Origin: a virus
Strand: one strand, 5' to 3'
DNA length: 64,000 bases
Virus record (IMG/VR): IMGVR_UViG_3300045988_165036
Span: 32,001-96,000 of that record
The position numbers and the translations under genes are program-made. The notes under the pieces were generated by a model. The model had not been told where the DNA came from. It was given only the letters and a program-made list of their open reading frames with translations, and ran no database searches. Positions 1 through 40,975 of this stretch are shown one piece after another; position 1 is the first letter of the stretch; each line of letters starts with the position of its first letter.

Positions 1-335
1 CTGCGGTTGCTCGTGAGGCGGGTCTTGATCTCGACCAAACTGCAGCAGCGTTGACTACAATGATTGACGTGTCGCAGCAGGATGCGAGCAGTGTTGGTAA
101 CGCTTTCAGAACGATTCTTGCGAGATACGGGAATGTTAAAGCAACTGCGTTTACTTCTTTGGTTGGCGACTCTGATGATGTTGACGACACAAATAGTTCT
201 ATAAACGATACCGAAAAAGTACTCGGAGCGATTGGGATTAAAATCCGTTCGTCTTCGAGTGATATGCGTGACTTTGATGACGTTATGGATGAGCTCGCTG
301 ACAAGTGGGTAACTCTTACCGACGTCGAAAAGAAT
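1..335 (+). CDS. tail tape measure protein, exon 1 (5' partial, enters window from upstream)
   Basis: Frame is open from nt 3. The peptide ...AFRTILARYGN...DFDDVMDELADKWVTLTDVEKN is typical of a TP901-type tape measure core. The sensible frame breaks after AAT 333-335 and resumes at 638 and 2153. Confidence 0.8.
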
Positions 336-637
336 TTGAAACAAAGTTCCATTATGGAGCAATCCATAATTGCAAACCCATTGAATTGCTGGAACGCCCT
401 TAGAGTAGTATAAACTAAAACATAGCGATGAAATATACGCAAGTGTGAATGTGGAAAATTATACTGATTGGGTAATCAGCAGCTAAGCTCCGAATAGGAG
501 AAAGTTCAACGACTAAGTGGTGGCAAGCGCCATCCAGTGGTGGGCTCCACGAAAGTGGATGATGAGATAGTCTAATCTCATATGAAAGTATGAGGAACAA
601 AAGTTCGTATGATTTAGCGAATCATATAAATAAAATG
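336..637 (+). mobile_element. group I intron 1 (ORF-less) in tape measure gene
   Basis: 302 nt. P1 can be drawn with the splice-site U.G wobble (g332-a-a-U335 pairs G346-t-t-c349, extended by t336 t337/a344 a345). Hairpins attatgga-gcaa-tccataat (351-370) and ccac-gaaa-gtgg (547-558, GNRA loop). Core block aggagaaaGTTCAACGAC (496-513), then AGTCTA (569-574) followed by hairpin ctcata/tatgag. Terminal G637 directly precedes in-frame exon 2. Confidence 0.7.
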
Positions 638-661
638 GCCGTTTCAACGGCACTCGCGGGT
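638..661 (+). CDS. tape measure protein, 24-nt micro-exon 2 (AVSTALAG)
   Basis: GCC GTT TCA ACG GCA CTC GCG GGT supplies the AxxxALAG segment expected between ...LTDVEKN and VRQRNIFG... in tape measure proteins. It is bounded by G637 upstream and U661 downstream, as group I splice sites require. Confidence 0.65.
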
Positions 662-1038
662 AAATTTATGCCCGTGTGTGGGTTAAAATACACACAAAGA
701 ACACATTTAATTGCAGGTAAAACCTTAGAGCCTTTTACCACAATAATCAAGAAATTAGATTATGACGGTTTAAAAACAAAAGGATTGGTAGATCTGCAAC
801 GAAGCTCCTAAATGAATATTTCACAAGGAGAACGTTCAACGACCATCCCCCGATGAGGGGCGTATTAATTATGCTACAGGAGTACGGCGCAAATAAAGGC
901 GTGGGTGAAAATCCCTCAAATGGAAATGGTGTGACTCGGTATGAAAATACAGGGTTAAGAAATGGTCTATTCTTGCGCGAAAACGCAAGCTGAAATTTAA
1001 TATAATAATTAGTTATTGATTTAAAAGGGGATTAAAAG

Positions 1039-1224
1039 ATGAAAGAGTATTATAACGTTTCTCAATTAAGAGTTTGCCGATATCTTTACTCACTGGGATT
1101 TGAGAAAGAAAGTTGGTTCGACAAAAACGGAAAAGAACATTGGCGATTTGAAAAAACAGATGATTTGATGATTGCTATGGATTTTTACAAAAAAATGAGA
1201 GACAAAAATAAAGTAAATAATTAA
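1039..1224 (+). CDS. intron-encoded small protein, unknown function
   Basis: 61-aa ORF with SD aaaagggga upstream of the ATG. It lies inside intron 2. No recognisable motif. Confidence 0.45.
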   Translation: MKEYYNVSQLRVCRYLYSLGFEKESWFDKNGKEHWRFEKTDDLMIAMDFYKKMRDKNKVNN

Positions 1225-1243
1225 AATCTTGGAGGTTTTTCAT

Positions 1244-2017
1244 ATGAAAAAATGGACAGAAGAAGAAATTGAATGGTTAAAAGAGAATTTTCCACATAAA
1301 CAATTTAGCGAAATGGAACGATATCTTAACAGATCTTGTCAAGCTATTACAAAAATGGCGCATAGATTAAAAATCAAAAGAGATGAATTGGTTTATAAAA
1401 ATTTTACAAAGGAACAGGATGAATGGTTGAGAAAGTTCTATTATGATGCGAGTTGGGAAGATCTTTTACAGAAATTTTCAAATTTATCAAAAACGCAAAT
1501 TGAGGCCCGGGCAAAATATCTGAAAATTAAAAGAAAACCAACATTTTATAAGTTCTCTAAAGAAGAAGATGAAACATTAAAAAAGTATTTTGGGAAAATT
1601 TCAACAAAAGAAGTATCCTTGCTCCTTGATGGTAGGGATGAAAAGGCGATATATCATCGCGCAAGAAAATTGGGGCTGGAAGTATATAAAATATGGACAA
1701 AAGAAAAAGACGAGTTTCTTATCAACAATTATGATAAGCTAAGAATAAGGGATCTTATGAAAGCGCTTGGCTTAAATTCTAATACACCAATTTATAATCG
1801 TATGCGAGAACTTGGTCTGCAAAATTGTGGAATTGGAAGAATTTGGAATGATGGAGATGACAGATTTTTAATAGATAATTATAATTTACTAACAAATAAA
1901 GATATTGCTTCTATATTAAAAAGAACAGAAATTGCTATAAAGAGCCGAGCAAGTAATCTTGGTATCAAAAAAGAAATAAATATGGATTGGGAAACAATAC
2001 GCCAGAGCAGTTTATAG
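1244..2017 (+). CDS. intron-encoded protein with five tandem ~50-aa Myb/SANT-like helix-turn-helix repeats
   Basis: SD ggagg lies 8 nt before ATG 1244. Five repeats fit the pattern W/F-[TS]-x-E-[EQK]-D-x-x-L-...-A-x-x-LG[IL]K (KKWTEEEIEWL.., KNFTKEQDEWL.., YKFSKEEDETL.., KIWTKEKDEFL.., RIWNDGDDRFL..). No GIY-YIG, HNH, LAGLIDADG or His-Cys motif seen. Confidence 0.6.
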   Translation: MKKWTEEEIEWLKENFPHKQFSEMERYLNRSCQAITKMAHRLKIKRDELVYKNFTKEQDEWLRKFYYDASWEDLLQKFSNLSKTQIEARAKYLKIKRKPTFYKFSKEEDETLKKYFGKISTKEVSLLLDGRDEKAIYHRARKLGLEVYKIWTKEKDEFLINNYDKLRIRDLMKALGLNSNTPIYNRMRELGLQNCGIGRIWNDGDDRFLIDNYNLLTNKDIASILKRTEIAIKSRASNLGIKKEINMDWETIRQSSL

Positions 2018-2152
2018 AATTTGTTTCTAATTTTTTCCCAGAAAAATTGGAAACATTATTAAAATATATGAAAAAAACAATAAAAATAACTAATTAAAAA
2101 ATAAATTATATTAAATTTCGGGTCGGAGTTATGAACCGACTGAATTCAAAAG

Positions 2153-5100
2153 GTCAGACAGCGTAATATTTTCGGGATCTATATGGAAAATTACGACACA
2201 TACAAACAGGCAATTTCTGAAGCCGAAAAAGCCCAGGGAACCGCCGCTCGTAAAATGCAGGCGTATAATGAAAGTGTTGCGTATAGTATCAATCAGCTCT
2301 CTGCGGCATGGGAAGGATTTACGCAAAAACTTGAGGCAAGTCCGGCCGTCAAGGGTATTTATTGGATTTTGACGCAAGGAATAAAGAATCTTGATCACAT
2401 TTTGCAGTGGTTAATACCCATTATCGCAACATTTAATGCCGATAAAATCGTAAGTCTCGCTAAATTTTTGTTTCCTTTGGTGACGGCTATTCCGAAAGCG
2501 GTTGGAAATGGATTTAAAGATCGTCACGGTAATGAATTCTATGAAAATATGACTCAAAAGATGACCGCAGAAAATACCAATGCTATTGAAGAGTTAACCA
2601 ATGCGACAAAAGATAACACTGCGGCATTAAGAGGAAGAAAGTCGAAGAGCGGCGCTGGCGGAGTTGGTAAAGCAGATGAGGGGGCAACACCAAAGGGCCC
2701 CAAAACAAAACAAAAGCCATATCAAAAGTATACATCTGATGTAAGGTCTCGCATAGATAGTCTTAATTATCATATTTCTGAAGCGGAAAAACAAGGAAAT
2801 GTTTCGGACGTAGAAAAACTTAAGAAAATTAAGTCGGAAGAATTAAGAAAAATAGAAGGAAACAAACCGGAAATTATTTCTGCGTATAGAAAAGATACCA
2901 GGGATGCGACAGAATTAGCCCAAAAACAAATTAATGAAATTGACAAAAGAGTGCAAGATTCAAAGGCTAACGCCCTTATGAGAAAAGAAATTGCGGAAAA
3001 TGCCCATAAAAACGGGCAGGTACAATCGAAACTTAAAGAGAAGGACAGAAGGGCTGAAGCTTCGCAGATTCACGCGGCTGAAATGGAGGCTTCTGGAGAG
3101 CAGCAGAAGGAGCAGATATTTAAAGAAAGAAACGATAGGCTCAAAGAGATTAAAAAACGGACAAAAAAAGATTTACGAGAAGAAAATAAGAGATTAAAAC
3201 AACAGGAAGAGGAATATAATAGAGCCAATAGCACTGGGAGAGCTAAAACCAGAACAGACGTAAAAGAACTCGCCCCAGAAGAACGCGCAAATCTTGAGGC
3301 TCAAAAGAAACTGGAGCGTTCCGCTCGTCTAAAGACCGGTGTTGTTTCTGGCATTGGCGCCGGAGCCGTTCGCTTTGCAAACAAAGGATCAAGTTTCCTC
3401 GATGAGGCTATGGGTGTTTCTGGTGTCGAAGTTGACACCGGTGAAGCTCTTGCAATGGGCGTTGCTCAGGGTGCTCTAACTGGAGTTGCGACTGCGTTTA
3501 TGGGACCTGCCGGAGCAGTTCTTGCCTCAATTCTTGGAGACGTTTTGTCTTCTTTCTGGAAAAAAATTGCTCACGCAGACGAAATTGATCGTAAACAGCG
3601 TGTCGAAGATGCCAAAAAACAACTCGAAGCAATTAAAGGGATCGAAAGTTCAGTTACTGGTTTGATTGATTTAAACAAAAAAAATCAAGCGCTGTGGGAT
3701 TCTGATGAATGGAAACAATTCAACGAACAGGTTGAAACAATCAATGAAGCTCTTGAAAAATCAGAGCTCGGAGATAGAATAATCAACCTCGGCAACAGTA
3801 CACAAACCCTTTCTGAATATTTCGAAGAAGCGGCAAGAACCGGAAATAAAGATATGCTTTCTCGCGTCGAAGCGGAGAGAATTCGTTTTGAGGCTGAAAA
3901 GACATACGCTGCAGGAGAACAGGATCGTTATACCCTCCAAAAAGAGATTAACGAGAATCAAAAGAAGCTCGCAAAGCTTGATAACGACGAGATATCGAAA
4001 AGGAAAGAACTTAACGTAGCAATCAAAGCTGCGAGGTCAGAAATTAAAGACTATTCCGAAGCCCTGAAGAGGGGTTATATGCAAGCGTCGTTCTACTCTT
4101 CTGGCGTTGGAACAATGGAGTCTTATGACATTGGAAACGCAACGCTTGATAGAGTAATTATGCAAATCGCTCGAGAATGGGCAAAAGATAGTCCTGATAT
4201 TTTTGCTGGAAATCAGCTGACGAGCGATGCTCGTTTCGAAATTATTTCGTATCTGCGAGAACAGCCGGGCTATTCTTCTCTGTTTAAAAACGACACGAAG
4301 AATGTTGGAGATATGTTAACAGCAAGAGACGCAGTTGATGATTTGAGAAAATCTCTTAATATGTCTCAAAAACAATTGAAAGAGTTTGCCAATAGTAAAG
4401 ATCTTCTTAAAATTGGAAAGTCTTTCGGTTTAATTAAAGATGATATTATTGATATTAATCAATTGTCAGAAGCAGACAAATCTGCTGTTTATAAATTGAT
4501 CGATAAAATTAATCTTGTTGATGAAGACGGAATTACAACAATTGCACACGCAATGAATATGACCGTTGAAGAATTTGAAAGAGCAAATGCAGATGGAGCA
4601 TTTAACTGGCTAACAGCTGATGTTGCGATTGGTGGAATAGATAAGTTAAATGAAAAAATGCAGACATTTAACGATTTGTTATCTGCAGCATCCGAGGGTT
4701 CCCTTTTAACTTCTGAAAATCTAAACAAGATTGCAAATCAATTCCCAACATTGCTCCGTGGAGTTGACGAAGCTGGGAAATATACAAAAGATTTGAGCTC
4801 CGATAATATTCTTGATAATATAATCAGAATGATGACAGACGAAGATTCCTTACGAGAAATTTATTCTGGACTATTTTCTGGAAGCGTAGCAAAAGATTCT
4901 GAAATCTGGAATAATTTTATGACCCTTGGAAAAGGAAGCGAAATTGCTAATTCCAATCTTTCTGAAGAGATTAAAGAGCGTATTAAAAAAGCAGGCTCTT
5001 ATTCTGATATCGTCGATATTTTTGCAATGGATAAGATGAAAGAATATAATGACGCGTTTAAAGAGTATGTTACAAGTATGTATCCAATAACTGATTTACT

Positions 5101-6694
5101 TGATGCACAAGCAAAGATTTTGGAGGAATACGGAAAATATACTCTAGAGACAGAGATTTCTAATCTTGAGTCGGTTCGAGATTCTCTTGACGATGTTAAT
5201 AAACAGCGCGAGAAGGAACTTGAACTGATTAAAGCAAAAGAAGCTCTTGAAAATGCATCAAAAGAAAAGAAGCGCATATATCGTGCTGGAGTCGGATTTG
5301 TCTATACGACAGATCAAGAAGCTGTTAAATCTGCGCAGGGAAAAGTTGACGAACTAGAAAGACAACGTGACAAAGACAATATTCAATATCAGATTGATTC
5401 GTTGCAACAGCAGAAAGAAATTCTTGAAAATATTGAAAACAACAAGCAATTAGAGTCTCTCGTTGATACCGCAGAAAGGATTCTCGGTAGCGATGGTTCG
5501 AATAATGGCATTGCCGGAATTATTACTGCCGTTAATTCAATAACTAGTGATGAATTTATAAATAAAATCAAAGAACAGGTTAAGACCGGGATTACTGAAT
5601 CAATTCAAAAAACAAACGACGAATCAAAAGAATCGGCTTACAAGAGCTATAAAGAGGCACAGTCTAGCTTAGAAGATTTTCGCAAAGAAGAATATGTGAC
5701 GCCAGAGGGAGAAAAAACAGGGTATGCAAAAGGAGATATTTTGAATAATCCAAGATCCCCATATTATTCTTCTGTTTATGACGAATATAAGTCTAAAATA
5801 AATAGCGTGAATAAATATGCTGAAAATTACAATAAGTATGTACAAGATAATTCTAAAAAAATCAGCAAAGAAAAGGCTGATGAGTCTAAGCAAAAATTCG
5901 GGTTTTTTGCTCCTGCATCGGGGTTAAAAAGAGTTATGGGAGCAAAGTCGGGAAACGTATTTGTATTCGGAATAAGCCCGAGCGTTAATCCAAATTGGGC
6001 AAGTAACGATCAATACACAGCAGGGAATTCTTCTAATATTTATATATCTAAACAAACTGATGATGGCGGTTTTGGTGGATTTGAACAATCTCCGTGGAAG
6101 GGGACGGCAGAAGAGGCAATAAATAAAGTAAAAGGACCCGCCCTAATTGTAAACAATAAAGGTGGAAAAGACTATTTAATTTATAAAGATGTTAATGGGG
6201 AAATCCATAATACTGTTGTTAGATTAAATAATGGAGACGAGTCTTTAGATGGGGAGCTGAGTTATGATGCATTTTTTAATGGGAAAGTTTTTAGTGGATC
6301 TAATGGCTTAAAGGCATTAAGAAAAATGGCTGATAATTATAATCCATTTGCTTCTGGTACTCTTTCAGCCCCTGGTGGTCGCTCCCTGATCAACGAAAAC
6401 GGTCTTGAATCCATTATTACTCCTTCTGGAACAATCACTTCTCTTCCTGCTAAATCTGGCATTGTTCCTGCCGATCTTACTCGTAACTTGTGGGCTCTTG
6501 GTGAGGTTGCCCCTAACCTTATTGCTCGTCTTGGTGGCAACAGTCTCCAGACCAACAATTCTAATTCTTCTACTGACAATTCGATCAATATTCAGAATCT
6601 TGATGCTACGTTTAATACGCAAAGCGATTTCGACGGACGTCGATTCTTAACAGATCTTCGTAATCAGGTTATCTTGACTGCAAATAATCATTAA
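2153..6694 (+). CDS. tail tape measure protein, exon 3
   Basis: The frame upstream of ATG 2183 reads VRQRNIFGIY-MENYDTYKQAI..., continuing the tape measure core. A long coiled-coil K/E-rich body follows, and the C-terminus (SGTLSAPGGRSLINENGLESIITPSG) is typical of tape measures. Confidence 0.85.
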   Translation, partial: VRQRNIFGIYMENYDTYKQAISEAEKAQGTAARKMQAYNESVAYSINQLSAAWEGFTQKLEASPAVKGIYWILTQGIKNLDHILQWLIPIIATFNADKIVSLAKFLFPLVTAIPKAVGNGFKDRHGNEFYENMTQKMTAENTNAIEELTNATKDNTAALRGRKSKSGAGGVGKADEGATPKGPKTKQKPYQKYTSDVRSRIDSLNYHISEAEKQGNVSDVEKLKKIKSEELRKIEGNKPEIISAYRKDTRDATELAQKQINEIDKRVQDSKANALMRKEIAENAHKNGQVQSKLKEKDRRAEASQIHAAEMEASGEQQKEQIFKERNDRLKEIKKRTKKDLREENKRLKQQEEEYNRANSTGRAKTRTDVKELAPEERANLEAQKKLERSARLKTGVVSGIGAGAVRFANKGSSFLDEAMGVSGVEVDTGEALAMGVAQGALTGVATAFMGPAGAVLASILGDVLSSFWKKIAHADEIDRKQRVEDAKKQLEAIKGIESSVTGLIDLNKKNQALWDSDEWKQFNEQVETINEALEKSELGDRIINLGNSTQTLSEYFEEAARTGNKDMLSRVEAERIRFEAEKTYAAGEQDRYTLQKEINENQKKLAKLDNDEISKRKELNVAIKAARSEIKDYSEALKRGYMQASFYSSGVGTMESYDIGNATLDRVIMQIAREWAKDSPDIFAGNQLTSDARFEIISYLREQPGYSSLFKNDTKNVGDMLTARDAVDDLRKSLNMSQKQLKEFANSKDLLKIGKSFGLIKDDIIDINQLSEADKSAVYKLIDKINLVDEDGITTIAHAMNMTVEEFERANADGAFNWLTADVAIGGIDKLNEKMQTFNDLLSAASEGSLLTSENLNKIANQFPTLLRGVDEAGKYTKDLSSDNILDNIIRMMTDEDSLREIYSGLFSGSVAKDSEIWNNFMTLGKGSEIANSNLSEEIKERIKKAGSYSDIVDIFAMDKMKEYNDAFKEYVTSMYPITDLLDAQAKILEEYGKYTLETEISNLESVRDSLDDVNKQREKELELIKAKEALENASKEKKRIYRAGVGFVYTTDQEAVKSAQGKVDELERQRDKDNIQYQIDSLQQQKEILENIENNKQLESLVDTAERILGSDGSNNGIAGIITAVNSITSDEFINKIKEQVKTGITESIQKTNDESKESAYKSYKEAQSSLEDFRKEEYVTPEGEKTGYAKGDILNNPRSPYYSSVYDEYKSKINSVNKYAENYNKYVQDNSKKISKEKADESKQKFGFFAPASGLKRVMGAKSGNVFVFGISPSVNPNWASNDQYTAGNSSNIYISKQTDDGGFGGFEQSPWKGTAEEAINKVKGPALIVNNKGGKDYLIYKDVNGEIHNTVVRLNNGDESLDGELSYDAFFNGKVFSGSNGLKALRKMADNYNPFASGTLSAPGGRSLINENGLESIITPSGTITSLPAKSGIVPADLTRNLWALGEVAPNLIARLGGNSLQTNNSNSSTDNSINIQNLDATFNTQSDFDGRRFLTDLRNQVILTANNH

Positions 6695-6702
6695 AAACAA
6701 AA

Positions 6703-6736
6703 AGAGGGCTGCGGTGAGAGATTATCACAGCCCTCT
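6703..6736 (+). terminator. stem-loop after tape measure gene (weak terminator candidate)
   Basis: agagggctg (6703-6711) pairs with cagccctct (6728-6736). No T-run follows. Confidence 0.3.
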
Positions 6737-6752
6737 CTATGTTGGAGGATTT

Positions 6753-7379
6753 ATGAAATTTAACAAAAAATTAACAATTCTAATTTGGGTTCTTTCGTTC
6801 ACTTGGGCTCTTCCGACAACTCTTGTTGGGTGCGTCGTTGCGTTATATCTCCGATTTCGTGGAAATAAACTGAAAAGGTTCGGACCAATTTTTTACTTTC
6901 CGATCACAGAAGATTATGGGCTGAATCTTGGTCCTTTTATTCTTGCCCCTAAAAATACCGATTTTTACTTGAACGCGCACGAGCTTGGTCATCATCTTCA
7001 GGCGTGTTTCAGGTATGGACCTTTCACCGTTTTTGTTGTCGCAATTCCGAGCGTTATTCGTTTTTGGTTGAGAAAACAGAAAACATATGACGGAAAACTT
7101 TTATATGCTTGTCTGCTTGTAATCGCAATTTATATTGTGAGCGCAGCCCTTAGCTGGATCGGATATTTCACGAAAATTGTCGCACTTGCGTTTATCGGAT
7201 TATTTTTAACAATTTATGGAATTGCTATTCAGATTTGGTTGAATAGGTTCGAAGCCCCGCGTTATAAAGATGGGAACTATCCGTCGTATGATGACGCGTG
7301 GTTTGAGAGAGATGCGACTAAAAAGGGAAACGATTTTATGAGAAAGTATTTCAACGAAGAGGTGAAACGGTTTTGGTAA
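6753..7379 (+). CDS. polytopic membrane protein with HExxH motif
   Basis: SD ggagg before ATG 6753. Several hydrophobic segments. NAHELGHHLQ is a zincin-like HExxH motif. Confidence 0.55.
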   Translation: MKFNKKLTILIWVLSFTWALPTTLVGCVVALYLRFRGNKLKRFGPIFYFPITEDYGLNLGPFILAPKNTDFYLNAHELGHHLQACFRYGPFTVFVVAIPSVIRFWLRKQKTYDGKLLYACLLVIAIYIVSAALSWIGYFTKIVALAFIGLFLTIYGIAIQIWLNRFEAPRYKDGNYPSYDDAWFERDATKKGNDFMRKYFNEEVKRFW

Positions 7380-8035
7380 AATATAATTATGATTTGTCAA
7401 ATTATGATTATGTTTTAAGCTTCGACCTCGCAAAACAAAAGACTGGATGGGCACTTGTTAATATTAAATCAAACAGGGTCGAAATGTCCGGGATAATAAT
7501 TTTGAACGAAAAAGTAGATTCTGTTTGGCTTGATGTATACGATAAAATCGTAGTTGTTTTGGATGATGTTAAAAAACATTGTCAAAATTTGGATAAGAAG
7601 TTTTTCGTGTTGAAGGAGAAACTCCCAAATCAGGCCGGAAGATTTACGACAATTGCGTCTCTCCAAGGATTGGCGCAAGTCCACGCAATTTGGGAACTCG
7701 CTTGTAAAAAGTCGGAAGCAGAAGTTTATGATTTCGACGGCGTTCATTCTGTTAGTGTTAAGGCTTTCTTTAAGAGAAAATACGAGATTGAAAAACCTCA
7801 AAAGGAAGACATCGCGAAATTGGTTTGTAAAAATTATTGTTTTGACATCGGAGATAATCCATTAGATATTACTGATGCAATTGCTTGTGTTCAAACATTG
7901 ATTGAATATAAGTGGAATGAAGACATTAAAGATGAAATTAAAGAGCTCGAAAAAGAACAAAAAAATTATAAAACAAATAAAAAGAAAAATCAGATCGCCG
8001 AAAAAATTCAGCGGCTGGAAGTGTTGGAGGTTTAA
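7373..8035 (+). CDS. RuvC-like Holliday junction resolvase (putative)
   Basis: SFDLAKQKTGWALV (first acidic motif), LKEKLP, and DITDAIACV near the C-terminus resemble phage RuvC-type resolvases. The start (TTG 7373) is uncertain. Confidence 0.5.
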   Translation: MVKYNYDLSNYDYVLSFDLAKQKTGWALVNIKSNRVEMSGIIILNEKVDSVWLDVYDKIVVVLDDVKKHCQNLDKKFFVLKEKLPNQAGRFTTIASLQGLAQVHAIWELACKKSEAEVYDFDGVHSVSVKAFFKRKYEIEKPQKEDIAKLVCKNYCFDIGDNPLDITDAIACVQTLIEYKWNEDIKDEIKELEKEQKNYKTNKKKNQIAEKIQRLEVLEV

Positions 8036-8037
8036 AT

Positions 8038-8364
8038 ATGGAAAATATTGGTTTATATTTAGGTATTGGAGCTGTCGTTCTTGCCTTTCTTTCGTATCTT
8101 GTGCCGCAGATTATTAAGTTCTGTAAAATGTCTAAGGATGATAAAAAGAAGCTTTTATTAACATATCTTGCTGGACTTGTAACGATGGCAGAGGAAGAAA
8201 TTGGTTCGGGGCACGGAGCGGAGAAGCTAGAAAAGGTTGAAAATTATTTTAAGGCTCACGCCGGGGTTTTTTATAAAATTATTTTGCTAATTTTTGGGAA
8301 AGAAAATCTAAAAGATTTAATTGAACAAGCGCTTGCACTTGTTAAGAAAAATTTCGAAAAGTAA
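8038..8364 (+). CDS. holin-like protein (LL-H-type, putative)
   Basis: N-terminal TM helix LYLGIGAVVLAFLSYLVPQII, then TMAEEEIGSGHGAEKLEKV, which is reminiscent of LL-H family holins. SD ggagg present. Confidence 0.45.
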   Translation: MENIGLYLGIGAVVLAFLSYLVPQIIKFCKMSKDDKKKLLLTYLAGLVTMAEEEIGSGHGAEKLEKVENYFKAHAGVFYKIILLIFGKENLKDLIEQALALVKKNFEK

Positions 8365-8388
8365 TTTTTTATAAGGAGAGGCATTTGT

Positions 8389-9213
8389 ATGATTACACTT
8401 CAAAATTTTGTTAAAAACGCAAACGCATATACGCTTTTGCTGACAATGGGAGAATACGATACGGCAGATATGCTTCCTACAGCACAAAAACCGTTTTCTC
8501 CTGAGTTTTATCCGGTGTCGGTAGATTATGGTGTCCCTGCACCCGGTTCCGTTGCCATTAATTATTTCACACAGGAAAACTTTATGTTCGTCAACGGGAT
8601 GTGGGGAAAAGATAGCGTCCCCTCTGTTCTCGAACAACTTACGGTGACTGAAAACAACGTATATACTCCGGACGAAGGCGTAGATGGATATGATAAAGTT
8701 ACGGTTAATGTTCCACAATTAGATACTTCCGACGCGACTGCAGTTGCTGGGGACATTTTGACCGGTAAGACCGCATATGTAAAAGACAAGAAGGTGACTG
8801 GAACTCTCAGCACTCAAATGAAGACCGCGACCCCGAGTTCTGCTTCGCAGACGATTACCCCGGACGCCGGTAAGCTGTTAAGCAGCGTTGTTGTTGAAGC
8901 AGCTCCACTTGACGCTGCGAAGACCGTTGCGGCTAGTACTTCTGCCAAAACGGTATCGCCAAGCACAGGGAAACTTGGTATCAAATCGGTTATTATTGAA
9001 CCGACGCCGAGTTCGCCGAAAACTGTTACGCCGACGAAGTCTGTTCAAAATGTTACTCCTAATGAAGGAGAACTTCTTTCTGATGTCACAGTAAATGCAA
9101 TTCCAAATGAATATATTATTCCGACTGGAACACAGACGATTACCACAAATGGGACCGTCGATGTAACGAATCTGGCAAGTGTTGTGGTTAACGTTCCGAC
9201 GACTGCCGGATAA
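8389..9213 (+). CDS. structural protein with four degenerate ~25-aa repeats
   Basis: Repeats: VYTPDEGVDGYDKVTVNVP / QTITPDAGKLLSSVVVEAAP / KTVSPSTGKLGIKSVIIEPTP / QNVTPNEGELLSDVTVNAIP. SD aaggagagg present. Confidence 0.5.
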   Translation: MITLQNFVKNANAYTLLLTMGEYDTADMLPTAQKPFSPEFYPVSVDYGVPAPGSVAINYFTQENFMFVNGMWGKDSVPSVLEQLTVTENNVYTPDEGVDGYDKVTVNVPQLDTSDATAVAGDILTGKTAYVKDKKVTGTLSTQMKTATPSSASQTITPDAGKLLSSVVVEAAPLDAAKTVAASTSAKTVSPSTGKLGIKSVIIEPTPSSPKTVTPTKSVQNVTPNEGELLSDVTVNAIPNEYIIPTGTQTITTNGTVDVTNLASVVVNVPTTAG

Positions 9214-14565: not shown

Positions 14566-14887
14566 GAAAGGACTAGTTGTTAAGTAGTCTGTTTTATAGA
14601 CAAAAGCACAGACAGGTGGACAAGTGTATTATTACATTTCTTGTCTGTACTTGCTTGACAACAGGTTTCAAGCTTTAGTGAATGCTGTTTTACGAAAGTA
14701 ATCCTGCATGATGAACTACGTTGGGGAAAAGGTTAAAAACGCATCTTCGGATGTACTCGTCAGTCTGAAGCTCTGCGAGTGCCAATCAAGAAACTGTGCT
14801 AGTGTCCTGCATAGATAACAGAGAAACACATATACCCTCCCCGACATTGGCAAGACGAAAATTACTCCGAAAGGAAGGCATCCAGAG
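14566..14887 (+). ncRNA. candidate IscB omegaRNA (locus 1)
   Basis: ~320-nt non-coding, hairpin-rich stretch immediately 5' of iscB on the same strand. It shares ACTACGTT (14715-14722) and GGATGTACTCgtCAGTCTGAaGCtCTGCG (14749-14781), at similar spacing, with the region upstream of the second IscB (37870-37877, 37902-37935). Confidence 0.7.
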
Positions 14888-16135
14888 ATGGAAAACAAAA
14901 TTGAATACTGCTTTGTGGTTGATAAAAACAATCGGCCATTGGCGCCGACGAAAGTTAATAAAGGCTGGTATCTGGTTAGAAAAGGCAGGGCAAAAATAAA
15001 ATCCAGATATCCTATGGTAATACAGTTGGAAAAGGAAGTGGAACCTGATGAAGATGATGAAAGCCATATGGTCTGCGGTATTGATGACGGTTCTATGCAT
15101 GTAGGGCTTGCCATTGTTCAGAAATGTCCTACCAAAAATAAAGTGGTTTTTAAAGGGACGATGGAACAACGCCGGGACGTAAAACATTTAATAGATATCA
15201 GACGTGGATATAGGCGTTATCACCGTTATCATAAAAGATACAGGCAGACAAGATTTAATAACCGTTCATCTTCTAAACGAAGCAACAGGTTGGCGCCAAG
15301 TATCAGACAGAAGAAAGATGCTGTTTTAAGGGTATTGTATCGGCTTAATAAGTGGTGCAACATCCAGGAATACTTCCTTGAAGATGTCTGCATGGATGTC
15401 CGTGCAATGACAGATGGTTACAAACCCTATAGTTGGCAGTATCAGAAATCTAACCGTTTGGATGAAAACCTTAGAAAAGCCGCTATTCTGAGAGATAATT
15501 ATAAATGTCAGGAATGTGGGAAATCCGGCTGTGTGTTAGAAGTACATCATATCAGGGCAAGAAAATATGGCGGAGCAGATACCATTGGGAATCTGATCAC
15601 GTTATGTGGAAAGTGTCATGATAAAACAAAAGGCAGAGAGCGGGATTTTGAAAACAGATATTTTGATATGATCAAATCCCAGCCGAAAAAATTTGATTAT
15701 GCTATGCATGTTATGCAGGGAAAAACCTATCTGAGAGAAAAGATTTCTGAATTAGGAATATTGCATCTTACAAATGGCGGGGATACTGCTAATAAACGCA
15801 TTAACTGGAATATAGAAAAGTCCCATAGTAATGATGCGATATGCATTACAGATAGTATTCCTGATACGTGTGATGTGAAAGAATGGATTATTAAGCCAAT
15901 GAGAAGGAAGTCGAAAGCTAAAACGGATAATGTGTTAGGAATTAAGCATAGGGATTTAGTTTCTTATACATATAAAAATGGAGAAACTCATACAGGATAC
16001 GTCACTGCTTTATATCCAGAACGAGTAGCTTTGAATTTTCAATCAAAAACCAAACATTGTAAAAAAGTAAATGCGCGAAAATGCAAATTGCTTTGGAGGT
16101 TTAATAATATTTATTGGTTAGAACAACGCGTATAA
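14888..16135 (+). CDS. iscB: IscB RNA-guided nuclease (OMEGA system)
   Basis: 415 aa. PLMP-like N-terminus ([24 protein letters not shown]), RuvC-I ([15 protein letters not shown]), Arg-rich bridge helix ([22 protein letters not shown]), RuvC-II (FLEDV), HNH ([22 protein letters not shown]), RuvC-III (HSNDAICI), and a C-terminal TID-like segment. Confidence 0.9.
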
Positions 16136-30913: not shown

Positions 30914-32110
30914 ATGGCAAGACGCGGAAGAATTTGTGAAATGAAAAGAAAGTTTGAAGATTATGATTATGTAATTCTTGGTGTAGGCGGCATTGGTAAG
31001 ACAACGCTCGCGCATGAAGTTGGCAAGAAGATTGCTGGAAGTGACGAAGGAACTTTTATTATTACCTGTGGCGCCGAAAACGAACCAATGCACATTAATG
31101 GGGCGTTTGGAGAGACTGATAAAACCTTTGAGGAACTGGTTGAATGCGTAAATTATCTTTGCGAACATAAAGATGAATATCCACACACTAAGTTTGTTGC
31201 AATTGATTCGCTCGATGAGCTTGTGAGAATTGCGTGCGATTATGTGGTTCGCGAATGGAACAGATTGTGTGAGAAGGCAGGTAAGCCGGAAGACAAGTGT
31301 AAGAGCGTGGCGCAGGCCTATAAGGGGTTCCAAAAGGGAGAGGATCGCGCCATAGATCTGATTATTAAGCAGATCGTAAAACTGAAGGATTCCGGATACC
31401 ATCTTCTTTACATTGGCCACACGAAGGTAAAGAGTTCCACTGATGTTATGCAAGATAACACCAAATTTGATCAGCTCACGTGTAGCGTTCAGCCGAAGTT
31501 CTATAATGCAATCAAAGATAAGGCAAACCTCGCTGTGATGTGTTATTTTGAGAACGAGATTGTTGGCGTTAAAGAAGAAAAGAACCCGTTCAATAAGAAG
31601 ATGGAAAAGAAGGGTACTCTCGTGAATAAAAAGAGAGTTATGCTTTTTACAGACGATTCTAATACTGTTGATACGAAGACTCATTTTGAGTATATTGTCA
31701 ACAAGGCAGATATGAGCGCCGACAATCTTATTGAGGCGGTCGAGGATGCGATTGCCGCAAAACTTGCCGCTCCTGTTGGGGCGCATAAGTCGCCTGAAAT
31801 GGTCGAAATGGCAATGTCTGCGTCCGAGTCTTCTTCCGATGAAGACCTCGACTCAACAGACGATGCCTCTGGCGTTGACGACCTCGACCCAGACACTTCC
31901 AACGTCGATCTCGATATGGACAATGCGGACACTGCTCCGACCATCGACAATCTTCGCGCGGAGATTCAGGGAAAGCTTCGTACAGCAAGCGCAGAGGTGA
32001 AGAAGAAGGCAAGAGAAATTCTGATTACCGAAGCGGCAGACCCGGAGAAGGTCAAGTTGGCGGATGCGACGGTTGAAACGCTGAACAAGATCCTTGCAAT
32101 TCTGGATTGA
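30914..32110 (+). CDS. Sak4-like P-loop ATPase (recombination)
   Basis: Walker A GVGGIGKTT, Walker B FVAIDSLDE, acidic S/D-rich C-terminal region. Confidence 0.6.
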   Translation: MARRGRICEMKRKFEDYDYVILGVGGIGKTTLAHEVGKKIAGSDEGTFIITCGAENEPMHINGAFGETDKTFEELVECVNYLCEHKDEYPHTKFVAIDSLDELVRIACDYVVREWNRLCEKAGKPEDKCKSVAQAYKGFQKGEDRAIDLIIKQIVKLKDSGYHLLYIGHTKVKSSTDVMQDNTKFDQLTCSVQPKFYNAIKDKANLAVMCYFENEIVGVKEEKNPFNKKMEKKGTLVNKKRVMLFTDDSNTVDTKTHFEYIVNKADMSADNLIEAVEDAIAAKLAAPVGAHKSPEMVEMAMSASESSSDEDLDSTDDASGVDDLDPDTSNVDLDMDNADTAPTIDNLRAEIQGKLRTASAEVKKKAREILITEAADPEKVKLADATVETLNKILAILD

Positions 32111-37759: not shown

Positions 37760-38038
37760 AAAAAAATAATTTTATTTGGAGGATATTGTGGTCAACCGCC
37801 CAGTTTCCTAAATGAGATGTGGGCTTGAGTAATCGAGCCCACTGATTGATCAGACTAAGTGTTTCGAGCACTACGTTATCAAAGAATATATAGGCACCGT
37901 TGGATGTACTCTCCAGTCTGACGCACTGCGGTATGTGATTAAACAGTTCTGATGGGTAGGAACAGTGTTGCATACGAAAACCTTTGAATAACATTGTCGT
38001 GGAGTAACTACTCTAACATACAGGAGGTTATAGAAACA
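37760..38038 (+). ncRNA. candidate IscB omegaRNA (locus 2)
   Basis: ~280-nt non-coding stretch 5' of the second iscB. Shares ACTACGTT (37870-37877) and GGATGTACTCtcCAGTCTGAcGCaCTGCG (37902-37930) with locus 1. Hairpin gtgggcttgagtaatcgagcccac. Confidence 0.65.
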
Positions 38039-39286
38039 TTGGTGTATGTGTTAAACAAACAAAGTAATCCCTTGATGCCTTGTAAAGAAGCAAAAGCAAG
38101 AAAATTGCTAAAACAAAATAAAGCTATTATAGTAAAATATGAGCCATTTACAATTCAATTGACTTTTGAGTGTGAAAATCAAACGCAAGAAATTTCTCTC
38201 GGAGTTGATGCTGGAAGTAAACACATTGGCATTTCTGCAACAACAGAGAAACAAGTTTTGTATGAAGCAGACGTTGAATTAAGAAACGATATCGTAGATA
38301 AACTCTCTTCTCGTAGAGAAGCAAGAAGAACGAGAAGAAACAGATTGAGATATCGTCCCACAAGATTCAACAATCGAGTTCATTCAAAACACAAAGGTTG
38401 GCTTGCTCCAAGCATCGAGCAGAAAATCAATTCGCATATTCAGGCAATCAAAAGACTTCATCAAATTCTTCCGATTTCAAAAATTATTGTGGAAACGGCG
38501 CAGTTTGATATTCAAAAAATTCAGAATCCAGATATTGAAGGAGAACAATATCAACAAGGTGATCAAATGGGGTTTTGGAATGTACGTGAATATGTGCTTT
38601 TCAGAGATGATCACAAGTGTCAGTATTGTAAAGGAAAATCTAAAGACAATCGATTAAATGTTCATCATATTGAGGGTCGTAAGACGGGCGGAAACGCTCC
38701 GAATAATTTAATTACGTTGTGCGAAACCTGCCATAATGATTATCATCAAGGGAAAATTCAGCTAAATATTAAGCGCGGAAAGAGCTTTCGAGATGCGACA
38801 TTTATGGGCATTATGAGAAAGACATTGTTGTTGAGATTAAGGGAAATATATCCGAATGTTCAAGAAACTTTTGGTTATATTACGAAGAACACCAGAATTG
38901 AAAATAGTCTTCCGAAAGAACATTATATAGACGCAAGATGTATTAGTGGAAATCCTTTAGCAAAACCGTTAGGATATTATCTTTATTAAAAATGTGTTAG
39001 AAGACAAAATCGTAAAATGACGAAAGATAATTTTATCAGAGGTGGAGTTAAAAAAAGTAATCAGTTAGTTGGCGATGTCTTCGGATTTGGGTTATTTGAT
39101 ACGGTTGAATATCAAAAGAAGAAGTATTTTGTGTTTGGTAAACGAAAATCTGGATTTCTGGACATTAGAACACTTGATGGAGAAAAAGCTAACAACGGCT
39201 CTATAAGCTACAAAAAACTAAAATTAATTCAAAAGAATAATAATATATTAACAGAAAGGAGTTTGTCAATTCCTACGCAACCATAA
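38039..39286 (+). CDS. iscB: IscB RNA-guided nuclease with one in-frame TAA (38987-38989)
   Basis: PLMP (QSNPLMPCKEAKARKLL), RuvC-I (GVDAGSKHIGISA), bridge helix (RREARRTRRNRLRYRPTRFNNR), RuvC-II (IIVETAQ), HNH (CQYCKG..VHHIEG..NLITLCETCHND), RuvC-III (HYIDARCI). After ..GYYLY-TAA the same frame continues KCVRRQNRKMTKD... (TID-like) to 39286. Confidence 0.85.
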
Positions 39287-39525: not shown

Positions 39526-39613
39526 AATAGTAGAAATGAAAGATTGGCTTTATTTACAAAGGATTTTTGAAAAGGAGAGAAAAAAATGACTATTGTTGAC
39601 TTTTATAAGAAAG

Positions 39614-40801
39614 GTGAAAGCGATTATAAAAACAATTCGAGTAATGTTGCTTCCAAACAACAAACAGCAAACTAAATTATTTCAATATGCCAATACTGCT
39701 CGTTTTGCTTATAACTGGGCAATAGGAAGAGAACAAGAAAATTATAAGAATGGTGGAAAATTTATATCTGATGGAGACTTACGAAAAGAGTTTACACAAT
39801 TAAAGAAAACTTCTGAATATGCGTGGCTAAACAATGTTTCTAACAATGTAACAAAGCAAGCAATTAAAGATGCTTGTGAGGCGTACAAAAATTTCTTTAA
39901 GGGAATTACAAAGTCCCCACGATTTAAGAGTAAGAAATATTCAATGCCGAAATTCTACCAAGATAATGTAAGAATTCAGTTTACAGACACACATGTAAAG
40001 ATTGAGGGTTTTGCTACGTCTAAGAAAAAGAATAAGCAAAGACTTAACTGGATAAGACTTGCCGAACGCGGAAGAACACCTATTGGAAATACAAAGTATA
40101 TGAATCCACGCATTAAATATGATGGACTTAATTGGTATATCACAGTTGGAATTGAATACGAAAATTCTACCGCTCCTCCAACCAACGAAGGTGTTGGAAT
40201 CGATTTAGGCATTAAAGATTTGGCAATATGTTCTGACAAGAACAAGTATCAGAATATAAACAAAACCCAAAGAGTTAAGAAGTTAGAAAAAAGAAAGCGC
40301 AGGCTACAACGTTCCATATCAAGAAAATATGAGAATAATAAGAAAGGAGAGCGTTACTGCAAAACAAGCAATATTATAAAAAGTGAAAAAGAACTTTTAA
40401 AATTGAATCACAGACTAACGAATATTCGTCAGAACTACCTACATCAAACAACATCTGAAATTGTAAAACGAAAACCAAGTTTTATCTGTATGGAAGATTT
40501 GAATGTGAGTGGAATGATGAAGAATAAACATTTGTCTAAAGCAGTTCAGCAACAAGGGTTTTATGAATTTAGGAGACAGATTGAATATAAGTCTGAGTGG
40601 AATAACATTCCAGTAATTATAGCAGATAGATTCTTCCCGAGTTCTAAGTTATGTAGTTGTTGTGGAAATATCAAAAAGGATTTGAAACTTAGCGACCGCA
40701 TTTACAAGTGTGAATGTGGAAATATCATAGATAGAGATTATCAAGCAAGTCTAAATCTGAAAAGACATGGAGAAATGTTATTAGAACAATCTGCATTATA
40801 A
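39614..40801 (+). CDS. tnpB: TnpB RNA-guided nuclease (IS200/IS605 OrfB family)
   Basis: RuvC triad contexts GIDLGIKD / CMEDLN / IDRDYQASLN. Zn-ribbon CSCCG..CECG. N-terminus IRVMLLPNNKQQTKLFQ. GTG 39614 chosen as start (the longest ORF starts at TTG 39593). Confidence 0.9.
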   Translation: MKAIIKTIRVMLLPNNKQQTKLFQYANTARFAYNWAIGREQENYKNGGKFISDGDLRKEFTQLKKTSEYAWLNNVSNNVTKQAIKDACEAYKNFFKGITKSPRFKSKKYSMPKFYQDNVRIQFTDTHVKIEGFATSKKKNKQRLNWIRLAERGRTPIGNTKYMNPRIKYDGLNWYITVGIEYENSTAPPTNEGVGIDLGIKDLAICSDKNKYQNINKTQRVKKLEKRKRRLQRSISRKYENNKKGERYCKTSNIIKSEKELLKLNHRLTNIRQNYLHQTTSEIVKRKPSFICMEDLNVSGMMKNKHLSKAVQQQGFYEFRRQIEYKSEWNNIPVIIADRFFPSSKLCSCCGNIKKDLKLSDRIYKCECGNIIDRDYQASLNLKRHGEMLLEQSAL

Positions 40802-40975
40802 CACTTTCAAGTTAATGCAGATATGTACTGGCACGTTAGTCAGGAATTTACGCCTATAGAGTGTACAAGAACTTGTGAGTAGTATATCAGAAATGATTAC
40901 AAAAGCATATACGATGAAATAGGAATGAAACATAAAAGTTTATAACTTTTTATAAGTTTTCAGTAACGGAAGCCA
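40700..40975 (+). ncRNA. candidate TnpB omegaRNA/reRNA (locus 1); boundaries approximate
   Basis: By the known architecture, the omegaRNA overlaps the tnpB 3' end and the right end of the element. Perfect 10-bp hairpin atctgcatta/taatgcagat spans the stop codon. A ~175-nt non-coding tail runs up to the primase start. Confidence 0.45.

Follow-up and report, generated by a model that had tools for sequence, protein, structure and literature searches.

Very short exons between group I introns have been described before. The gene orf142 of Staphylococcus phage Twort is described as carrying a 23-nt exon with a group I intron on either side, skipping of that exon being observed and the high similarity of introns 2 and 3 being proposed as its basis (Landthaler and Shub 1999, cited after PMC10136302 and PMC3073962). 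In the 23S rRNA gene of Coxiella burnetii, the group I introns that flank a 34-nt exon are described as belonging to different subgroups (PMC10136302). Tape measure protein (TMP) genes are also occupied by such introns: in prophages of the Bacillus cereus group they occur at three sites (TMP-IVS1/2/3), with presence/absence polymorphism and degenerate endonuclease genes, and the TMP-IVS1 and IVS2 introns are 80% identical and rarely found in the same gene (Tourasse and Kolsto 2008, PMC2504315). Here we describe a TMP gene at the start of a 64,000-nt stretch of viral DNA (hereafter the window; IMG/VR record IMGVR_UViG_3300045988_165036, positions 32,001 to 96,000), in which two inserts separate a 24-nt micro-exon from the rest of the coding sequence.

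The evidence supports the reading that two independent group I introns flank this micro-exon, with junctions at 335/638 and 661/2153. Very probably they are unrelated introns at adjacent TMP sites, each of which excises itself to give a continuous TMP. The locus resembles Twort orf142 in that a very short coding exon (24 nt, against 23 nt in Twort) lies between two group I introns of a phage gene and could in principle be skipped; unlike in Twort, where the flanking introns are highly similar, the two introns here share only the universal core (matches of 18–31 nt), their guide sequences differ, the host gene is another one, and splicing is a prediction. The Coxiella burnetii case concerns a bacterial rRNA gene, whereas a phage protein-coding gene is interrupted here. 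The B. cereus prophages resemble this locus in having IA-type introns at several TMP sites, in occupancy that varies from one related phage to the next, in the targeting of conserved stretches and in the degeneration of some endonuclease genes; they differ in that the introns here are dissimilar, only 24 nt apart and often co-occur, and their sites need not be homologous to TMP-IVS1/2/3. Given the Twort and Coxiella precedents (23 and 34 nt; PMC10136302), the first-pass annotation overstated the case when it called the arrangement unusual. With the B. cereus TMP genes also taken into account, we regard the locus as a new example of a known arrangement rather than a new kind, and it leaves the current understanding of group I introns unchanged.

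The TMP-encoding span occupies positions 1–6694 on the + strand and matches Pfam PF10145 (PhageMin_Tail); its features are listed in Table 1. The product of exon 1 covers profile positions 105–192 of 201 (E = 4 × 10−14). This exon ends ...GAA AAG AAU at position 335, beyond which the unspliced frame runs into a stop codon at 411–413, and the TMP frame resumes at 2153 with GUC AGA CAG CGU (VRQR); the break and resumption proposed in the first-pass annotation are thus exact. The missing piece, AVSTALAG, is encoded by the micro-exon (GCC GUU UCA ACG GCA CUC GCG GGU), an assignment on which the sequence and uninterrupted homologs agree. Translation confirms that both joins preserve the frame. Adding the micro-exon extends the PF10145 match to profile position 201 of 201 and gives a score of 55.8 bits, compared with 53.1 bits when it is left out. 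The spliced product would be a single continuous TMP reading ...LTDVEKN-AVSTALAG-VRQRN... (predicted junction-spanning stretch: ...DVEKNAVSTALAGVR...).

Table 1. Features of the interrupted tape measure gene, in window coordinates.
Feature	Positions	Strand	Basis or remark
TMP exon 1	3..335	+	Last part of a far longer exon that the window start truncates; ends ...LTDVEKN
Intron 1, group I intron without an open reading frame (ORF), 302 nt	336..637	+	RF00028
Micro-exon, 24 nt, AVSTALAG	638..661	+	Homologs have A[VI][SA]TA[LM][AG]G at the same place
Intron 2, group I intron, 1491 nt	662..2152	+	RF00028 and exact absence in relatives
61-aa ORF in intron 2	1039..1224	+	Weak match to Pfam DUF5659 (E = 2 × 10−4, below cut-off)
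Truncated intron-encoded protein with Myb/GcrA-like helix-turn-helix repeats	1244..2017	+	PHROG 323, PHROG 1891
Out-of-frame remnant of endonuclease C-terminus (YGLGNNTPEQFIEFVSNFFPEKLETLLKYMKKTIKITN, then stop), 38 codons	1981..2097	+	Frame 2 matches the C-termini of L003 and L005
TMP exon 3	2153..6694	+	Begins VRQRNIFGIYMENYDTYK...; 1513 codons to the stop

The same exon 1 encodes 1469 aa in the related locus L007; given the length of this N-terminal exon alone, the assembled TMP would be about 3000 aa. For annotation, TMP in this phage group is encoded by a single gene of roughly 3000 codons, which gene callers at present split into 4–5 ORFs, and recognition of the 24-nt exon restores a conserved TMP motif. 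In another related locus, L001, the gene called upstream of the TMP exon (1–5830) encodes more than 2600 aa and matches the nuclease domain PDDEXK_1.

The strongest evidence for the boundaries comes from alleles that lack one or both inserts. We gathered 27 related loci from scans of IMG/VR and metagenome contigs, plus individual protein look-ups, and 19 of these cover both sites; a megablast of window positions 1–2700 against 50,697 phage records returned no match, leaving no cultured close relative for comparison. Among the 19 alleles, seven have neither intron (L004 and L128–L133), three have intron 1 only (L135, L140 and L141), three have intron 2 only (L006, L134 and L007) and six have both (the window, L001, L005, L008, L137 and L138). 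Whenever an intron is missing it is missing exactly: the flanks meet at 335|638 in the intron-2-only alleles, at 661|2153 in the intron-1-only alleles, and at both points in every intron-less allele. LTDVEKN-AVSTALAG-VRQRN is encoded contiguously in the intron-less L129 and L132. With the predicted spliced protein as query, homologs were recovered that run uninterrupted across both junctions, namely P0007 (...WINLTDVEKNAVATAMAGTRQRNAF...), P0009 (...SKNAISTAMAGVRQRENL...) and P0010 (...TRNAVATSFAGIRQRE), so that the continuity between AVSTALAG and VRQRN, on which the first-pass annotation had staked its proposal, is conserved as N-A[VI][SA]TA[LM]AG-[VTI]RQR. These exact presence/absence alleles prove at the DNA level that there are two separate optional insertions, with boundaries that are exact and not due to chance. 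Within the phage population, each intron comes and goes independently of the other.

The exon sequence next to each site tracks occupancy. The glycine codon at the end of the micro-exon is GGU, which supplies the splice-site U, in every allele with intron 2, and GGC or GGA in every allele without it; the micro-exon itself, in which the differences are synonymous, reads GCCGUUUCAACGGCA where intron 1 is present (with GCU as the first codon in one allele) and GCCGUGAGUACUGCU in the intron-less alleles closest to these. The pattern is consistent with co-conversion or with selection for P1 and P10 pairing. We also considered whether intron 1 hitch-hikes by co-conversion on the endonuclease of intron 2, and dropped the idea because three alleles (L135, L140 and L141) have intron 1 only.

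Intron 1 matches the Rfam group I intron model RF00028 at 326–594 with 84.6 bits (E = 4 × 10−20 over the whole window), well above the curated gathering score of 50 bits. Its P1 helix pairs GAAUUU (332–337) with AAGUUC (344–349) and places the wobble U335.G346 at the 5' splice site; P2 (351–358/363–370) is closed by a GCAA loop, the strands of P7 lie at 511–515 and 568–572, and the last base of the intron is G637. A possible P10 joins GAAAC (338–342) to GUUUC (641–645) in the micro-exon. The full secondary structure (P1–P9.1, with the pseudoknots P7 and P10) was scored for covariation on 12 alleles, of which 10 are distinct. Across the 88 modelled pairs, which take in all 16 helices, 99.9% of cells were paired, and five pairs showed compensatory changes (two in P6 and one each in P5a, P9 and P9.1). 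None of 500 shuffles reached the observed values, and sliding the 3' partners by 1–3 columns reduced pairing to about 36%.

Intron 2 consists of a ribozyme core (about 662–1011), a peripheral insert that carries the ORFs (about 1012–2098) and a 3' terminal hairpin (2122–2126/2136–2140). The RF00028 match at 652–989 scores 48.5 bits (E = 9 × 10−11 in a 2-kb search and 3 × 10−9 over the whole window) and its alignment spans all 253 positions of the model. Intron 1 is thus clearly recognised by the model, whereas the window copy of intron 2 falls just short of the cut-off that its counterpart in the sister contig L008 passes (54.4 bits). P1 pairs exon bases CGCGGGU (655–661) with the guide GCCCGUG (670–676) and contains the wobble U661.G670; the last base in the window is G2152. 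The first-pass annotation had named the U.G pairs at both 5' splice sites and the G before each 3' exon; all four are present, the two pairs inside plausible P1 helices. The core of intron 2 is nearly invariant among alleles, so little covariation is available, and the guanosine-binding helix P7 (CGACC/GGUCU) is unchanged throughout. Compensatory changes are found in P1, where G658-C673 becomes A-U in L006 and L007, and in a P9 pair that is G-C, G.U or A-U in different alleles. The P10 guide covaries with the start of exon 3 (UUUAU with AUAAG or GUAAG; CUAGC with GUUAG or ACUAG). We read the conserved core helices P3–P8 of both introns, P7 among them, as maintained by selection. Both introns look like members of the IA type, judging from covariance-model alignments in which P7.1/P7.2-like inserts separate the 5' strand of P7 from the 3' strand of P3.

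A natural ORF-less version of intron 2, 396 nt long, occurs in L006 (4358–4753) and L134 (3858–4253), where the core runs straight on into the final ~54 nt. This version would make a convenient minimal construct for splicing assays.

The two ribozymes had been taken for paralogues because they share a 17/18-nt core block and an rGTCTA-plus-hairpin layout. The block is present in both introns; the paralogy is not supported. The shared segment, GGAGAANGUUCAACGAC, belongs to J6/7–P7 and recurs in at least 119 unrelated viral contigs, giant-virus bins included, which makes it a family-wide core element. BLAST comparison of intron 1 with intron 2 gave only matches of 18, 31 and 26 nt, all in the universal core. 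Each intron is closer to introns of other phages: intron 1 shares 82% identity over 136 nt with one in Streptococcus phage Str-PAP-1 and 78% with one in the capsid gene of Bacillus phage SP-15, and intron 2 is about 73–75% identical to Staphylococcus phage introns. Given that only core stretches are common to both and that their nearest relatives differ, the two introns look like independent arrivals.

The guanosine at the end of group I introns is normally universal, and we know of no phage group I intron that ends in A. The last base of intron 2 is G in the window and in L003, L005, L008, L136, L137, L138 and L144; it is A in L001 (position 9006), L006 (4753), L134 (4253) and L007 (6167), L006 and L134 being independent assemblies with identical sequence. 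About one-third of the intron 2 alleles thus end in A, within intact TMP genes; the downstream TMP frames of these alleles are open for at least 730–1439 codons, and TMP genes are essential. The reading frame and the P10 covariation fix the 3' splice site in the A-ending alleles, which tend towards a stronger P10. Other boundaries fared worse. In a search that required a 5' U, a 3' G and preservation of the frame, the only candidate was a 3' site after ...AGACAG, which would delete the conserved xRQ residues and has no P10 support. Moving both boundaries by one base works for L006 only, at the price of a G-C pair at the 5' splice site. A natural group I intron with a terminal A has been reported from the mitochondrial ND5 gene of a sea anemone (PMC8146996). 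That the intron 2 lineage has made its terminal guanosine dispensable, with the 24-nt exon perhaps also allowing a minor TMP isoform shorter by 8 aa, is a conjecture from these alleles that we think improbable. Should the A-ending alleles splice efficiently, theirs would, as far as we know, be the first omega-A group I intron to be described from phages or bacteria, and the G and A alleles would form a natural pair for dissecting 3' splice-site selection.

Several observations count against two functional, independently acting introns in the window. Intron 2 misses the Rfam gathering score by 1.5 bits, and its P10 is weak (GUCAG against UUUAU, four of five pairs including wobbles). The P10 of intron 1 is set 3 nt off the splice site. 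Intron 2 ends in A in three sister alleles (the identical L006 and L134 counted as one), so the 3' splice reaction in this family of introns is only partly explained. For the cargo of intron 2, the structural match to the SciA endonuclease of phage T5 is weak (Foldseek probability 0.97, E = 0.096).

From their membership of the group I family, each intron should undergo standard self-splicing. Each ribozyme would find its own splice sites through its own guide: AAGUUC of intron 1 would pair with exon bases GAAU and the first two intron bases UU, and GCCCGUG of intron 2 with the exon CGCGGGU. Guanosine-initiated, two-step excision of each intron would then join 335 to 638 and 661 to 2153. The micro-exon would serve intron 1 as a 3' exon, through the possible P10 at 641–645, and intron 2 as a 5' exon, through the P1 strand at 655–661; because these segments do not overlap, the two reactions need not compete. 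Intron 1 probably splices first, as transcription passes it about 1.5 kb ahead of reaching the end of intron 2.

The alternative with most in its favour is exon skipping, as the main outcome or a regulated one, in which 335 is ligated to 2153 and the TMP lacks AVSTALAG, much as for the 23-nt exon of Twort orf142. The skipped message stays in frame, its product would still match PF10145 with little loss of score, and cases in which a short exon flanked by group I introns is skipped have been documented (PMC10136302, PMC3073962). However, AVSTALAG is kept in every intron-less homolog, and the two introns differ in guide sequences and cores, whereas Twort introns 2 and 3 closely resemble each other. 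In an engineered Tetrahymena two-intron system, distinct splice-site recognition elements favoured exon inclusion and suppressed skipping (PMC10136302). We consider skipping on this scale quite unlikely. Because the two introns differ in their guides, P1/P10 sets and cores, we expect the micro-exon to be included in most products and in-frame skipping, with its loss of 8 aa, to be at most a by-product.

A second alternative holds that intron 2, or both introns, are decayed relics that no longer splice, and that TMP is made as separate N- and C-terminal proteins, the latter starting at ATG 2183. It could draw on the score of intron 2 just under the Rfam threshold, on its broken endonuclease gene and on gene callers, which begin the downstream protein at MENYDTYK. 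The core of intron 2 in the window is nevertheless about 97–100% identical to those of sister alleles, the one above threshold included, and the window keeps both the U.G pair and the terminal G. Upstream of the proposed start, codons 2153–2182 are conserved as coding sequence, with V, I or T as the first codon just as in intron-less homologs, and we saw no convincing ribosome-binding site before ATG 2183. We judge this alternative highly improbable. The suggestion that 336–2152 is one composite element, either a twintron or a single large intron, with the 24 nt as a chance in-frame match, has nothing behind it beyond the closeness of the two inserts and can be set aside almost with certainty: it is refuted by the intron-1-only and intron-2-only alleles with exact junctions, the 24 nt are ordinary coding sequence in intron-less alleles, and the conserved residues that they encode amount to a coding exon of a kind that a twintron would not have between its parts.

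The two introns also differ in cargo. Within intron 2, the 61-aa ORF is identical or near-identical in L001, L005 and L007 and is kept in every allele that carries the repeat protein. The PHROG 323 and PHROG 1891 matches of the repeat protein ('HNH endonuclease') concern the repeat region only. Full-length relatives of 388–395 aa (L001, L005, L007 and P0015–P0034) continue into a C-terminal domain with an invariant HH...H..FH..YG.G.N block. Compared with L005, 313 bp are deleted from the window copy, which shifts the frame and takes away this block; with the C-terminal domain deleted, the endonuclease-type gene at 1244–2097 is, by its sequence, a pseudogene. The C-terminal domain of the full-length relatives had no match in Pfam (E up to 10) or in a PDB sequence search, and the cargo protein was modelled by AlphaFold2 with a predicted local distance difference test score (pLDDT) of 82.6, the model that gave the weak Foldseek match to SciA mentioned above. 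A firm 'HNH' assignment from the C-terminal motif was downgraded for want of a Pfam or PDB match and because of the weak fold match, and we call the domain a putative His-Me/HNH-type homing nuclease. Intron 2 was presumably mobilized by its own endonuclease; as the gene is dead in the window, the intron would now be inherited passively.

Cargo varies among the other alleles of intron 2. A second, divergent repeat protein is present in L001 and L007, and the intron of L006 and L134 has no ORF. In L008 (5159–6277), and also in L138, an IS605-family TnpB of 372 aa (PF01385, PF07282 and PF12323) replaces the DUF5659-like ORF and the repeat protein; in L008 it is 26% identical to a TnpB elsewhere in the window. 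This TnpB segment lies within the peripheral region of the intron, with about 90 nt between it and the 3' splice site that follows, and the sequence downstream of TnpB in L008 contained no significant known RNA motif. IStrons are chimeras of a group I intron and an IS605-family TnpB (PMC10690162), and L008 and L138 resemble them in carrying TnpB inside a group I intron. They differ in that the TnpB of L008 is nested in the periphery and may not share ends with the intron, and the window copy of intron 2 is without TnpB. The alleles thus form a series at one locus that runs from empty through either intron to both, with cargo that comprises two intact endonuclease types, a deleted form, TnpB and no ORF at all. 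Such a series could serve for work on how introns are acquired and lost, on co-conversion and cargo exchange, and on whether exon skipping is avoided by dissimilar ribozymes that lie close together.

Dense clusters of group I introns were also seen elsewhere. The IMG/VR contig 3300034096_001425 (L076) has 14 RF00028 matches within 8.5 kb (660–8954, − strand), some separated by 38–90 nt; L011 has seven group I intron matches and L014 has four. Judging from such contigs, environmental viruses may often carry group I introns in tandem with very short exons between them.

Other mobile-type elements occur further along the window. At 37791–38989, a HEARO RNA (128.6 bits) is followed directly by a gene for a 331-aa protein with RRXRR and HNH domains, which looks like an IscB-type RNA-guided nuclease unit in a phage. 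Among the tail genes at 14619–16135, a weak second HEARO match (34.4 bits, below threshold) precedes a 415-aa RRXRR and HNH protein. The TnpB gene at 39593–40925 encodes 402 aa (OrfB_IS605 and Cas12f1-like TNB domains), and a RAGATH-18 RNA motif (69.4 bits) lies 52 nt downstream of it.

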